This document shows positions 28,545 to 32,473 of a stretch of DNA of 64,000 nucleotides, piece after piece; positions within the stretch are counted from its first letter, which is position 1, and each line of letters begins with the position of its first letter. The DNA comes from an uncultured Spirochaetota bacterium (GTDB lineage: Bacteria > Spirochaetota > Brevinematia > Brevinematales > JAOACQ01). The DNA lies in NCBI GenBank assembly GCA_963835575.1, contig CAWIGG010000002.1, positions 640,001-704,000 on the forward strand. Reading direction: 5' to 3'. The notes under the pieces were generated by a model, which saw only the letters and a list, made by a program, of their open reading frames with translations, did not search any database and had not been told where the DNA came from. The translations under genes were made by a program, and so were the position numbers.

Positions 28545-28849
28545 AAACACCAAGACTCCAAAATCACCAAGAATCACCAAGGAAATTTAATCCATTTCAT
28601 TGCTCATCTTGACAGTCACTTGCTTAATCCTGTTTGTGTATCTTTGTGTTCTTGACATCTTGATGCTTCAATACATTATTATAAAATGTCGAAAGCCTAA
28701 TAATAGGGAAGTGTAAATTAATCAGACACCTTAAATACATCCTGTTCTCTGTGCTCTCCTTTTTCTCAGTAATCTCTGTGTTTTTCAATAAAAGGATAAG
28801 TATTATTATCATTATGATGACCATTTCCCGGTTCTTCGTGCCTTCCCGT
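28545..28849. repeat. Periodic repeat arms left of the IS110 element
   Basis: AAACACCAAGACTCCAAAATCACCAAGAATCACCAAGG; CTTTGTGTTCTTGACATCTTGATG; TTCTCTGTG..CTCTGTG; CTTCGTGCCTTCCCGT. Confidence 0.7.
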
Positions 28850-28864
28850 CTTGTAAGCTATATT

Positions 28865-29077
28865 TTGGAGAAAAAGTTTACAAAAAATAATTCTTCAGTA
28901 GAATACCTCCTTGTGGAAGTTGTTGCTCACTACCCGCCTGCCTTCTGGTTTGAAACCAAGGCACACAGGAAGATTGCCAACTCCACAAGGACCGTTTTGG
29001 TCTCTTAAAACAATTGCCAGGATATTCCCTTGAATAATCCTGTCGCTCATTACAAGGGTGCCGAAATGGAACGGTCT
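28865..29077 (+). ncRNA. Putative IS110 bridge RNA (5' stem-loop, target-binding loop, donor-binding loop)
   Basis: Stems TCCTTGTGG/CCACAAGGA and GACCGTT/AACGGTC; loop segments match or complement the element ends and flanks; RNA ends approximate. Confidence 0.8.
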
Positions 29078-29103
29078 GATATTTTAATCTGCTGGAGGAA
29101 AAA

Positions 29104-30378
29104 ATGCTAATCCGGGATGCTATCGGGATTGATCCCGATTCACAACAGTATGTGTGTATGTATGTCAAAGCGGAAGACTGGAAAACGGAACGGAAAGCCT
29201 TTCCGGTTACCACAAGCGGCCTTGATAATCTGATCGAATGGACTCGGTCGAAAAATGACCCGATTATCGCCATCGAGGGAAGCAACGGGCAGAGTAAGCC
29301 CTTAGAGAAAGTGCTTCGTAAGGAATCGATGACCTATTACTCGTTTAAAGCAAGGGATGTTGAACAAAAGAGGAAAAGCCAGCTCCCGGCGGGAAAGAAC
29401 AACGAAAAGGATGCTCATGCCGCCGCTCTTTTGGCTTTAGAGCGTGAAATGAACGGTTCTCTGGAAAAATGGAGAAGGGTCTATCCTGTTGACAGCGAAT
29501 TACAGACGATAACCCGGAAATATGAAAGTGTAAGCGGCAGGATCACAGAGGAAATATCCGGGCTGTGGAAGCTTTTATGCGAGGCTTCCCCGGATGTTTA
29601 CCTGTTCTTAAGCGGCAAGAATATGGAGACGGATAACAGACGTAATGTTTTGAATAGCGCAGGAGTACTGAATTTGCTGTGTAATTGTCCCGATTTAAGC
29701 CAATGGAGGAGATTAAGCGCGGAGAAAATGAAAGAGCTGATGGGTGGAGGCTCTTATAGAGGCCGGGATAAGACCATCGCCGGCTTACAGGTAATAGCCC
29801 AAAGAATCTTGGGTGTAGCGGGCCCCATTTCCATGATGATCCGGCAATCTGCTGAAAATATTATTCTTTTGAAAGGCCATAAGGAAGAAATGAAGAAGAT
29901 TTTGGATAATCTGGCTGAATCCAGGGAAGCTGTCCGGGTTTTAGCCTATGACGAATCCAATGGCAATGGGTTGAAAGGAATCGGCGTGATCACTGCCTCT
30001 ACGATGATAGCCGAGATTATTCATATCAATCGTTTTGTTAAAGAGGACAGCCTGGCGTTATATGCGGGATTCGGTATGGTGGAAGATGAAACCGGAAAGA
30101 AAAATAGGGGTGAAAGAAAGAAGATGAAACATACTCACGATTATAACCGCCGTTTGAAAAACGCCTTTATGAACGCGGCCAAGAACTTTGTTCACTGGAA
30201 TCCGGACCACCATATTTCCGGCATGCACAGGAATTTGATAAAAAATGGAATGAGCAGGCTCGAAGCGAATAAAAGGGTTGCCAGAGCATTAGTCCGTAAG
30301 ATATTTCGGATATTAAAGGACTATGAGTCTGAAAATATAAGGAAAATGGAAGAAAACGGGGTGGCAAAAGTGGGTTAG
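29104..30378 (+). CDS. IS110-family recombinase/transposase
   Basis: IGID, AIEG, KNNEKDA (RuvC DEDD domain); KGIGVITASTMIAEI..RF..LALYAGF..ETG (Tnp20 domain). Confidence 0.92.
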   Translation: MLIRDAIGIDPDSQQYVCMYVKAEDWKTERKAFPVTTSGLDNLIEWTRSKNDPIIAIEGSNGQSKPLEKVLRKESMTYYSFKARDVEQKRKSQLPAGKNNEKDAHAAALLALEREMNGSLEKWRRVYPVDSELQTITRKYESVSGRITEEISGLWKLLCEASPDVYLFLSGKNMETDNRRNVLNSAGVLNLLCNCPDLSQWRRLSAEKMKELMGGGSYRGRDKTIAGLQVIAQRILGVAGPISMMIRQSAENIILLKGHKEEMKKILDNLAESREAVRVLAYDESNGNGLKGIGVITASTMIAEIIHINRFVKEDSLALYAGFGMVEDETGKKNRGERKKMKHTHDYNRRLKNAFMNAAKNFVHWNPDHHISGMHRNLIKNGMSRLEANKRVARALVRKIFRILKDYESENIRKMEENGVAKVG

Positions 30379-30498
30379 AAACCCTGCGGAAATATTCCGC
30401 GAGCAACACCTCCATTTTCTTCCGCCTTTATTATATCGAACTACTGAGGTTTTTTAAATATTTTGATTGTTTTTTTCTTGACTTAACTAAAACAATCT

Positions 30499-30591
30499 TC
30501 CTGTTGAACTAAACCCCGTTTCTCTATTCGCGTCCATTCGCGGGTAACCTCGTTTGCGCCCCTTGGTGCTCTTAGTGTTTTTGTGGTTAAA
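30499..30591. repeat. Periodic repeat right arms flanking the IS110 element
   Basis: ATTCGCGTCCATTCGCGGGTAACC; CCTTGGTGCTCTTAGTGTTTTTGTGGTTAAA. Confidence 0.7.
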
Positions 30592-30601
30592 TTAAAGTAC
30601 C

Positions 30602-32473
30602 TCAATCTTTATTCATTTCATAGATCTCATTAAAAAGGTAGGAATTGGCGAGGAAGATTTTCAAAAGCTCCGGGTCAAAATGGGCGGGATTGACCCTGTC
30701 ATCGCCATGGGAGATGATATCGACGGCTTTTTCATGAGAGAGCTCGTATTTGTAAGGTCTGGCGCTGCGGAGCGCGTCATAGATATCGGCGAAAGCCATG
30801 ATCCGCCCGGGGAGCGGTATAAGCTTGCCCTTCAGGCGCTCCGGGTAGCCGCTTCCGTCCCATTTTTCATGGTGATAAAGCGCGATCTGCCGGGCCGTCA
30901 TCAGCACGAGCGAACCGGCGCCGTCAAATATTTTTCCGCCGATAACAGTGTGTTTTTCCATGATTTTCCATTCTTTTTGAGAAAGCCGCCCTTTTTTAAA
31001 GAGGATCCTGTCGGGAATTCCGACCTTGCCGACGTCATGCATGGGGGCCGCGAAATAGAGGTTTTCAACTTCTTCACCTGAAAGTCCCATTTTTTCGGCT
31101 AAAAGCTTGACGTAAAGGCTCACTCTCTTGATATGGGCTCCAGTTTCCGGGTCCCTCAGCTCGGCGATAATGGCCATACGGTTGATCGCTTCGAGATAGG
31201 CGAAATCGACCTTACGGAAGGCATTGTCTCTTTCCCACAAAGTCTTTTCCAGATCTGCTTTTTTTATTTCTATTTCCCTGTAAAGGCGGGTGAATTTATT
31301 TGACAGAACAAAAGAAGTGCTCAATATGAAGATCAGAAAGCCGTATGGGGAAAACGGCGCCAGCGCGTTCAGCAGCGGGGATGTGATGACATTCTTTGAA
31401 ATAATAATGTCCATGATAACAGTCAGGATCATGAAAATCATGGGATAGAGCATGACCAGAGCGTCTTTATTTTTTCTGCGTTCTCTAAGCAGAATGATAA
31501 ATATTGAAATAATAGGAATAGTCCAGCTGTATTGGTAAATATTGATATTCAGGAAATCCCATAAAGCCGGTTCGCTACTGATCAGCGCCGTAATAATACA
31601 GCCCGCCGAAACGGCGTAAAAAATGTAATGAAGAATGTTCCTTTTTTGATTAAAATGCCGCAGGATGAACTCGAAAAATAAAGGGACAACGGTAAATAAA
31701 CAGATGTATTCAATTCTTTTCAGGAGCATAAAATCCTGTATTATGAAATACTTCACTTCCGAATGCATGAAAAAATAGATTGAGAAGAACAGGCAGAAGA
31801 GGCCGAAAAATAAATTATCGGAGCCTTTTTCAATCCTGACATAGAACAGTAAAAAATAAAGGCCGAAAACTATGATGACAATAGTGAGAAAAGTTTTAAT
31901 ATATTCGGTTAAAAAATAATGATGCGTAATTTTTTGATATGGGGCGATCATGATAAGCCCGTTTATCAATCCGGCTTCATAGGAAAAATATCCTTTCACC
32001 CGTATTGAAAAAACATTGTCCTTTCCGGGCTTGATTAATTGTGAGGGGATTTCGTAGATACGGATTTTGTCATAGGCATGGCTTTTATTGTTCTCAAATG
32101 ATCCTTCTTTGCCGATAAGGATGCCGTTGAAGTAGGTTTCATCAATATCAGAGATCATGCCCAGGTTTATTCCCAAAGATCTTTCCGGAATCTCATTCGG
32201 GAACTGAACATGAATTCTGTACCAGCAGGTCCCGTTCCAGCCTGGAAAAGCCGTCTCCTGCCATTTAGACGGCACATACACTCTTTTCCACAGACTGTCG
32301 TTATAAGCGGGTTTTTTGTATTCGGGAGAATCCCCTTTCTCTATCAAAACTATATTGCTGTTATTCATTATTACCGTATTCTGGTAGTTAGAGAGGACAA
32401 AATAAGACGTATTTCCAGACAGAAAAGTCCTGCAAAAAAATAAAAAAAGAAATAAAGATATAAAACGCTTCAA
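30602..32473 (-). CDS. HD-GYP cyclic-dinucleotide phosphodiesterase with sugar-binding extracellular domain and 7TM region
   Basis: GH2-N-like WKRVYVPSKW..GTCWYR..DETYFNG; about 7 TM; ETGAHIKRV, MHDVGK, HHEKWDGSGYP, DIYDALRSARPYK. Confidence 0.92.
   Translation of the reverse strand: MKRFISLFLFLFFCRTFLSGNTSYFVLSNYQNTVIMNNSNIVLIEKGDSPEYKKPAYNDSLWKRVYVPSKWQETAFPGWNGTCWYRIHVQFPNEIPERSLGINLGMISDIDETYFNGILIGKEGSFENNKSHAYDKIRIYEIPSQLIKPGKDNVFSIRVKGYFSYEAGLINGLIMIAPYQKITHHYFLTEYIKTFLTIVIIVFGLYFLLFYVRIEKGSDNLFFGLFCLFFSIYFFMHSEVKYFIIQDFMLLKRIEYICLFTVVPLFFEFILRHFNQKRNILHYIFYAVSAGCIITALISSEPALWDFLNINIYQYSWTIPIISIFIILLRERRKNKDALVMLYPMIFMILTVIMDIIISKNVITSPLLNALAPFSPYGFLIFILSTSFVLSNKFTRLYREIEIKKADLEKTLWERDNAFRKVDFAYLEAINRMAIIAELRDPETGAHIKRVSLYVKLLAEKMGLSGEEVENLYFAAPMHDVGKVGIPDRILFKKGRLSQKEWKIMEKHTVIGGKIFDGAGSLVLMTARQIALYHHEKWDGSGYPERLKGKLIPLPGRIMAFADIYDALRSARPYKYELSHEKAVDIISHGDDRVNPAHFDPELLKIFLANSYLFNEIYEMNKD

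Follow-up and report, generated by a model that had tools for sequence, protein, structure and literature searches.

An IS110-group recombinase with Asn and Thr at two catalytic positions in an uncultured Spirochaetota bacterium

Introduction

Bridge recombinases of the IS110 group are intensely studied as programmable genome-rearrangement tools, and the mechanistic models for them all rest on IS621-type enzymes with a D-E-D-D catalytic tetrad and a Ser nucleophile. Here we describe an IS110-group insertion sequence (IS) from an uncultured Spirochaetota bacterium (GCA_963835575.1) whose recombinase has Asn in place of the third Asp of that tetrad and Thr in place of the Ser. The element occupies positions 28850-30498 of a 64,000-nt stretch of contig CAWIGG010000002.1 (contig positions 640,001-704,000; hereafter the window, to which feature coordinates refer), is 1,647 bp long with one CT core counted, and encodes a 424-aa recombinase at 29104..30378 on the plus strand, where all other features of the element given below also lie.

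The closest described systems are IS621 and ISCro4 (PDB 8wt6-8wt9, 9t56). In the passages of PMC11208158 that deal with the IS621 active site, D11 and E60 bind Mg2+, the waters of which are bonded to E60, D105 and T12; D102 does not bind Mg2+ and makes a hydrogen bond to the backbone of G242 of the partner subunit, fixing the loop that carries S241, the residue that makes the 5'-phosphoserine link. Our element resembles these systems in both Pfam domains and overall fold, in a left end that holds, ahead of the gene, a predicted RNA with two guide loops, and in its CT core, lack of terminal inverted repeats and repeated genomic target motif; a candidate -35 hexamer can be read in its right end and a candidate -10 hexamer in its left end. 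It differs in that its recombinase has Asn for the third carboxylate, Thr for the Ser nucleophile and a Pro-Asp pair (P11-D12) after the first Asp, is about 100 aa longer, and is only 14-16% identical to the IS621 and ISCro4 proteins in structural alignment. The enzyme is an IS110-group bridge recombinase by its domain content, fold, RNA and target behavior, and it fails two textbook signatures of the group (D-E-D-D and Ser) and one curated equivalog threshold. We consider it probable that this is a functional, RNA-guided bridge recombinase whose Asn/Thr active site is a working variant and not a product of decay.

No description of Asn or Thr variants of IS110 recombinases was found in the literature covered, which did not include the sequence logos of PMC11208160, and the relevant passages of the seekRNA paper and of a 2026 review mention only DEDD and the "SG motif". 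A literature search for a phosphothreonine nucleophile in serine recombinases likewise found nothing. We know of no recombinase in which a Thr hydroxyl has been shown to be the DNA-attacking group.

Active-site residues and their equivalence to IS621

An earlier note on this DNA had described the recombinase open reading frame (ORF) and its two unusual motifs, and direct reading bears it out, with K-N-N-E-K-D at residues 98-103 and an ACC codon (30091-30093) for residue 330, inside E-T-G. A ribosome-binding site (GGAGG, 29094-29098) precedes the ORF. The note had judged by eye that these motifs correspond to the third and fourth tetrad positions and to the nucleophile of IS621. A 68-sequence profile aligned to the sequences of the solved IS621 (8wt6) and ISCro4 (9t56) proteins gives the same placement, with K-n-N-e-k-D-A opposite K-T-D102-T-V-D105-A of IS621 and e-s-T-G opposite E-S241-G, both in high-posterior columns and both alike for ISCro4. 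At the level of aligned sequence, then, the equivalence of N100 to D102, of D103 to D105 and of T330-G331 to S241-G242 holds. A three-residue register shift of the K-x-N-x-x-D motif, returned by a single-sequence phmmer search against PDB, was overruled by the profile alignment.

The tetrad reads D10-E58-N100-D103 in place of D-E-D-D. The first catalytic Asp is followed by a clade-specific Pro-Asp (D10-P11-D12, 29131..29139), the second catalytic residue, E58 (29275..29277), aligns with IS621 E60, and N100 (AAC, 29401..29403) and D103 (29410..29412) occupy the third and fourth places. Where IS621 has the S-G nucleophile motif, our protein has T330-G331 (ACC GGA, 30091..30096). The note had also allowed that another Asp or Ser might be found in the site, and none is apparent from the sequence: no other Ser lies within residues 318-350 by direct reading, acidic residues at positions 99 and 101 beside N100 are not conserved in the clade, and position 329, Glu here, is variable and often Ser in relatives. 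T330 is the sole hydroxyl residue at the conserved finger tip.

Conservation and phylogeny of the Asn/Thr clade

The closest proteins were drawn from a search of 5.8 billion sequences that returned 215 matches, and all counts out of 120 given here refer to the best 120 of these, which extend down to about 41% identity. D10, E58 and G331 are present in 120/120, D103 in 119/120 and D12 in 118/120; position 100 is Asn in 120/120, and position 330 is Thr in 116/120 and Ser in the other 4/120. For a wider view, we searched 50%-identity representatives exhaustively, which gave 264 proteins at E <= 1e-3 (49 at E <= 1e-30); among the best 150 of the 264 we aligned the 59 of at least 300 aa and left out the 91 that were shorter. 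Asn occurs with Thr in 31 of the 59 and with Ser in 2, Asp occurs with Ser in 17 and with Thr in 6, and 3 are gapped at one of the two sites. A quick maximum-likelihood search on 56 rows gave a tree, midpoint-rooted for drawing only, that unites the 33 Asn rows in a single clade with a Shimodaira-Hasegawa-like approximate likelihood ratio test (SH-aLRT) value of 99. The two Asn+Ser rows are nested inside this clade, and five Asp+Thr rows form a separate branch, also with an SH-aLRT value of 99. By these counts and this tree, N100 and T330 are clade traits rather than private mutations. Given the separate small Asp+Thr clade and the few members of the Asn clade with Ser, Thr has been gained or retained two or more times and has no mechanical link to Asn.

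The recombinase clade is deep and mostly borne by Spirochaetota. Mainstream IS110 genes of Spirochaetota are, by contrast, Asp/Ser: a profile search found the PF02371 domain in 69 of 301 Spirochaetota genomes, and each ORF recovered from the 30 best loci that covers either motif reads K-x-D-x-x-D-A at the tetrad and carries Ser no more than one column away from the nucleophile position. The distinct loci of the Asn clade all read K-x-N (17/17), and those that span the nucleophile position have Thr in 15/16 and Ser in 1/16. Across related loci, Thr is encoded by ACC 8 times, ACT 4 times, ACG 3 times and ACA once, and Asn by AAC 14 times and AAT 4 times (18 locus rows representing the 17 distinct loci, L008 and L019 being the same locus). 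All four ACN codons and both Asn codons are therefore in use, which argues for selection on the amino acid.

To find further residues that distinguish the clade, we compared alignment columns between 51 Asn-group and 45 Asp-group rows, the groups being set by position 100 and the rows being kin. P11 (94% in the Asn group vs 2% in the Asp group) and D12 (91% vs 0%) are the strongest clade-specific columns apart from 100 and 330, followed by E68, W155, W201 and R391. P11 and D12 are candidate co-varying residues, a lead rather than more since the groups are kin. Both groups have only Ser or Thr at position 330, with G331 at 97%, and nothing else in the Tnp domain is as well conserved as the [S/T]-G tip.

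A Thr-Gly motif is shared by the Asp+Thr subclade of IS110 recombinases (P0206, P0222, P0235, P0254, P0255, P0268 and P0269), where it stands within Q-T-G-K. These proteins differ in having a canonical K-T-D-x-x-D-A tetrad motif, in lacking P11-D12 and in their separate branch, and are 22-29% identical to our recombinase; a profile search with this subclade, using a word prefilter, found at least 21 proteins.

Domain content and predicted fold

The gene encodes RuvC-like and Tnp domains and a coiled coil that contains a clade-specific insertion. Both Pfam domains of the group score above their gathering thresholds: PF01548 (DEDD_Tnp_IS110) on residues 7-161 with 49.8 bits (E 4.1e-13, gathering score 29), and PF02371 (Transposase_20) on residues 290-368 with 49.3 bits (E 6.7e-13, gathering score 21.3). 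NCBIfam NF051857 reaches 46 bits, below its cut-off of 180. An AlphaFold2 model of the protein has a predicted local distance difference test (pLDDT) score of 89.6 and a predicted template modeling (pTM) score of 0.78. Comparison of a predicted structure with IS621 had been proposed in the earlier note, and in a Foldseek search of PDB with this model the ten best matches are all IS621 or ISCro4 chains, with an E value of 1.5e-10 and a target-normalized template modeling (TM) score of 0.72 for 8wt9_C. By fold match, the model thus resembles IS621 in its RuvC, coiled-coil and Tnp architecture. The additional length relative to IS621 is modeled as five short extra helices between the two coiled-coil helices, a clade-specific insertion at residues ~163-232 (window ~29590-29800). 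The clade-specific Trp residues at 155 and 201 lie in or near this region.

Two other kinds of protein were compared. The RuvC proteins of Thermus thermophilus and Escherichia coli are among the fold matches of the model, and RuvC-fold nucleases such as Cas9 and Thermus RuvC are like our recombinase in that the third residue of D-E-x-D is not Asp; the residue at this active-site position in Cas9 and Thermus RuvC is His. These nucleases differ in hydrolyzing DNA with water and in having no Tnp finger. TIGR-TasR (PDB 9mty), with its Tnp/Nop-like and RuvC-like domains, also gives a fold match to the recombinase (E 2.1e-6), and NCBIfam NF052498 matches residues 288-364 weakly (32.5 bits vs a cut-off of 100), but the aligned loop of TIGR-TasR is without the [S/T]-G finger motif and its guide comes from a TIGR array and not from a bridge RNA.

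Element copies, target sites and distribution

The source genome (4.39 Mb in 7 contigs, G000 in locus names) holds six full copies of the element with 99.7-100% nucleotide identity, together with one degraded relative. The six copies lie at six different sites, all in the same repeat motif and all flanked by CT, and differ from one another at four positions, of which one is non-synonymous (R180H); all six recombinase ORFs are intact, with R180H as the sole amino-acid polymorphism. In the copy in the window, the left CT core copy (28850..28851) marks the junction of the target left flank with the left end, as defined by comparison of the copies with empty sites. The left-end non-coding region that holds the bridge RNA (28852..29103) precedes the gene, and the right-end non-coding region (30379..30496), identical among the six copies but for one single-nucleotide polymorphism (SNP), is followed by the right CT core copy (30497..30498), with target DNA again from 30499.

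Left flanks end in ...CTTCC[C/T]G[T/C] followed by CT, and the right end reads ...AACAAT-CT followed by TCCTGT. The target motif is a CTTCCCGT-CT-TCCTGT repeat, and a scan of the genome for the left-flank motif gave 23 matches, of which 4 are occupied and 7 are empty, the seven empty sites reading ...CCCG[T/C/A]-CT-TCCTGT.... The insertions have the traits of the IS110 group: a CT core lies at each junction, and neither terminal inverted repeats nor a classical duplication of the target is present. From its copies and junctions, the element looks like a recently active and complete IS110-group insertion sequence.

The recombinase protein was not found in any of the 4 same-genus genomes searched and was found in 2 of the 40 genomes of other relatives searched, a patchy distribution that fits a mobile element recently expanded in the source lineage. 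A tblastn search of a plasmid collection with the recombinase gave no match at E <= 1e-10. Neither a circle junction nor an empty-site contig was present in the assembled contigs of four DNA sequencing runs, although contigs cannot show rare forms. One sequencing run yielded a 1,666-nt contig with 19 differences and another left flank of CTTCCCGT repeats.

Several features of the copies and their surroundings are described here in their own right. The target belongs to a genomic repeat of CTTC[C/G][C/T]G[T/C]-like octamers (window 28832-28849 and 30499-30600, and the 23 genome-wide matches to the left-flank motif), and a stretch resembling repetitive extragenic palindromic (REP) sequences, ATTCGCGTCCATTCG[C/T]GTGCATTCGCGG, often follows it. 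Two sites, C2:501310 and C4:963336, read ...CCCG[T/C]CTTGTTAAT, without the CCT of the usual empty site. The degraded relic, at G000:C2:1329623-1330118 (L007:1501-1996), is 86% identical in nucleotides over the last 490 bp, contains two TAA stops and keeps the nucleophile motif D-E-T-G.

Two of the six copies are interrupted at an identical point, in the stretch that separates the bridge RNA from the ribosome-binding site of the recombinase gene, by a 1,675-bp DDE IS (G000:C5:162932-164606, L037:433-2107; and G000:C2:1643158-1644832; the equivalent window point is 29094/29095). This IS encodes a 488-aa transposase (PF13751/PF05598/PF01609), has 16-nt terminal inverted repeats and a 4-bp GCTG duplication, and occurs in 24 full copies in the source genome. 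The two composite copies carry unlike SNP haplotypes (R180 vs H180), so either the site was struck twice or sequence was exchanged between copies. We considered transposition of the 3.3-kb composite as proof of movement and dropped it, given the differing haplotypes and the 24 copies of the nested IS; the composites are not proof of movement because independent hits or gene conversion are equally possible.

Another IS110-type recombinase, canonical and 398 aa long, is encoded at two loci of the genome (G000:C2:475443-475676, L052; and G000:C5:7117-7350) and has the motifs K-K-T-D-x-x-D-A and Q-S-G; a third PF02371 match lies in a 276-aa open frame (G000:C2:1620128-1620373). Downstream, the element ends about 100 bp from the stop codon of an opposite-strand gene (30602-32473, minus strand) for a 623-aa multi-pass membrane protein, the C-terminal part of which looks, by eye, like an HD-GYP-type domain.

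A candidate bridge RNA with guides for target and donor

The 254-nt left end folds with a minimum free energy of -83.2 kcal/mol (z = -5.48), and none of 200 shuffled sequences did as well. It matched no Rfam family even at E values up to 10, giving only three chance-level matches to snoRNA and RsmY models. Within it are two stem-loops bearing guide loops, and exact-match mapping located the guides other than the left target guide. According to the relevant passages of PMC11208158, the left guides of IS621 pair with the bottom strand, its right guides with the top one, and the element follows the same strand rule. In the target-binding loop, the left target guide on the 5' arm (28930..28939) is CTACCCGCCT, which matches CTTCCCG[T/C]CT at 8-9/10 positions and by direct reading has the same sense as the target left flank and core, and the right target guide with core (28965-28972) is ACAGGAAG, the reverse complement of the core and right target. 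A handshake guide follows directly after the right target guide, as in IS621; here it is ATTG (28973-28976), whose reverse complement forms the final 4 nt of the donor left arm. In the donor-binding loop, the left donor guide on the 5' arm (29006..29014) repeats the final 9 nt of the right end exactly and in the same sense, and the right donor guide with core on the 3' arm (29050..29056) is TTACAAG, the reverse complement of the core and the first left-end bases. The left end would thus specify a structured RNA with two loops and four guides complementary to target and donor.

A relative at locus L019, with a recombinase 59% identical and a left end 84% identical to ours, offers a useful comparison. 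The scaffold and both donor guides are conserved in L019, and the target-guide stretch differs, its reverse complement being identical to the relative's own right junction over 11/11 nt; CT is present at both of its element junctions. A two-stem consensus common to both elements has 48 pairs, of which 3 are compensatory, a covariation signal that is weak alone because only two sequences contribute. As a side observation, the regions L019:930-1207 and 2600-2660 make the two elements a natural retargeting pair, L019 having kept the donor guides and IS ends but having another target guide and another target, …CGTGT-CT-… / …CAAT-CT-CCGTGCC.

Transcription of this RNA could depend on a promoter formed only at the circle junction. 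The right end holds, along with the donor left arm, a candidate -35 hexamer, TTGACT (30478-30483), and by direct reading of both hexamers the left end holds a candidate -10, TAAGCT (28854..28859), 17 bp past the -35 when the right end is joined to the left end. The -10 is weak, with 3/6 positions; the equivalent places in L019 read TTGACA-17 bp-TAAACT. These hexamers fit the junction-promoter model, in which the candidate promoter may be used.

A proposed mechanism and its alternatives

If the element works as its parts suggest, then a bridge RNA with two loops would be transcribed from the left end, probably via the promoter assembled at the circle junction, with one loop pairing with the genomic target and the other with the joined IS ends. 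D10, E58 and D103 would serve, like their IS621 counterparts, to hold Mg2+ and its waters. In place of the third carboxylate, the side-chain carbonyl of N100 would accept a hydrogen bond from the backbone of the partner subunit's nucleophile loop. The T330 hydroxyl, at the tip of the Tnp finger, would then attack the phosphate adjoining the CT core, giving a 5'-phosphothreonyl-DNA intermediate instead of phosphoserine. The clade-specific D12 may offset the lost charge and may restore a carboxylate near the metal. That the whole clade carries out conservative recombination via 5'-phosphothreonyl-DNA, with a RuvC site rewired around N100 as a pure hydrogen-bond partner and a new D12, is in our judgment a better than even prospect, held with less assurance than the activity of the enzyme itself.

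The Asn substitution is less radical than it appears because IS621 D102 bonds to the G242 backbone and not to the metal (PMC11208158, in the passages cited above). Because Asn has a side chain able to accept this bond, N100 is a plausible functional equivalent of D102 rather than a loss. We infer that T330 is the nucleophile from its place in the aligned [S/T]-G motif.

A number of points weigh against the reading of a functional Asn/Thr enzyme. Thr is a secondary alcohol and generally a bulkier nucleophile than Ser. The recombinase scores 102.2 bits against NCBIfam IS110 equivalog NF033542, under the cut-off of 140. Neither N100 nor T330 is absolutely fixed, because P0154, a gapped row for a 320-aa truncated protein near the clade, reads K-D-D-x-x-D-A and Ser occurs in a few members of the clade. 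The four other genomes with clade members have 1-2 matches each, which leaves the source genome as the only one with clear evidence of multiple copies. The canonical Asp/Ser IS110-type gene, present in two copies in the same genome, makes mobilization in trans conceivable. Finally, in IS621 activity is lost on D102 mutation, so the position matters (PMC11208158); the mutants named in the relevant passages are the quadruple D11A/E60A/D102A/D105A and S241A, and no Asn is mentioned there.

The earlier note had offered two explanations for the unusual residues, a clade using Thr chemistry with compensating changes or a catalytically dead binder, and had taken the ends and bridge RNA to be intact. 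The ends and RNA are as it supposed, with the strongly folded left end, four guides that match the element's own target and donor, and CT at both junctions. Conservation, monophyly, the copies, the guides and the candidate compensating residues P11 and D12 all favor the first explanation, the phosphothreonine chemistry itself still being inferential; its expectation of joint conservation of N100 and T330 in a multi-copy clade is borne out for the conservation and, for the multiple copies, in the source genome.

The alternative that survives best, though we think it improbable, is that the element is active while T330 is not the nucleophile, with DNA being attacked by water, as in RuvC, or by another covalent residue, and T330 and N100 having only structural roles. 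RuvC-fold nucleases normally use water (PMC11208158), which lends this mechanism some precedent, but it has to account for the [S/T]-G tip being the best-conserved Tnp feature in Asn and Asp groups alike. It also lacks a candidate residue, there being no Ser in 318-350 and position 329 being Glu and variable, and conservative cutting and rejoining with precise junctions fits a covalent intermediate.

We give rather less credence to a non-autonomous element, in which the element's own recombinase is inactive and its copies were moved in trans by the canonical Asp/Ser recombinase of the genome. The gene for the 398-aa protein with K-K-T-D-x-x-D-A and Q-S-G motifs, present at two loci, would supply the means, but its protein groups with the distant Asp/Ser set outside the Asn clade, and bridge RNAs are expected to be bound by their cognate recombinases, to judge from the IS621 structure as presented in PMC11208158. 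Six intact ORFs with one amino-acid polymorphism would be surprising if the gene were dispensable, although the copies are young, and clade-wide conservation argues for selection on the recombinase's own function.

Slightly less likely again is the dead binder of the earlier note, a domesticated RNA-guided DNA-binding protein that has kept the fold and guide RNA and no longer cuts. Alteration of both the D-E-D-D tetrad and the Ser nucleophile is what such a protein might show, as is an equivalog score under the cut-off. This explanation is disfavored by the recent expansion to six near-identical copies at six distinct sites, with precise CT-flanked junctions and empty sites left over, by the continued match of the guides to the ends of the element, a match that matters for transposition only, and by the retention of D10, E58, D103 and T330-G331 across a deep clade. 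That it was not found in the 4 same-genus genomes searched also accords with a mobile element, not with a host gene.

The last explanation, that the copy is decaying and its N100 and T330 are private inactivating mutations, is one that the earlier note had tied to close homologs having Asp and Ser, and nothing speaks for it other than the deviation from the textbook motif. It is refuted by the conservation of N100 (120/120) and T330 (116/120) among homologues down to ~41% identity and by the monophyly of the Asn clade, even the degraded relic keeping E-T-G (G000:C2:1329623-1329982), and we regard it as scarcely credible.

Implications for bridge recombinases

The reading of a functional Asn/Thr enzyme would not make this a new kind of system, since the Asn/Thr change is a chemically conservative substitution in a known one. 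A natural, diverse and evidently mobile Asn/Thr clade would indicate that the enzyme can do without a charged metal ligand at the third "catalytic" Asp, in agreement with the IS621 structure, and the clade is in this respect a natural test of the role of D102. A Thr hydroxyl is very probably able to serve as the DNA-attacking group. The clade also provides a new set of orthologues for which matched bridge RNA, donor and target sequences are defined. If the proposed chemistry is true, then these would be the first natural threonine-nucleophile recombinases, and they could differ from IS621-type enzymes in the kinetics of cleavage and religation or in the stability of the covalent intermediate.

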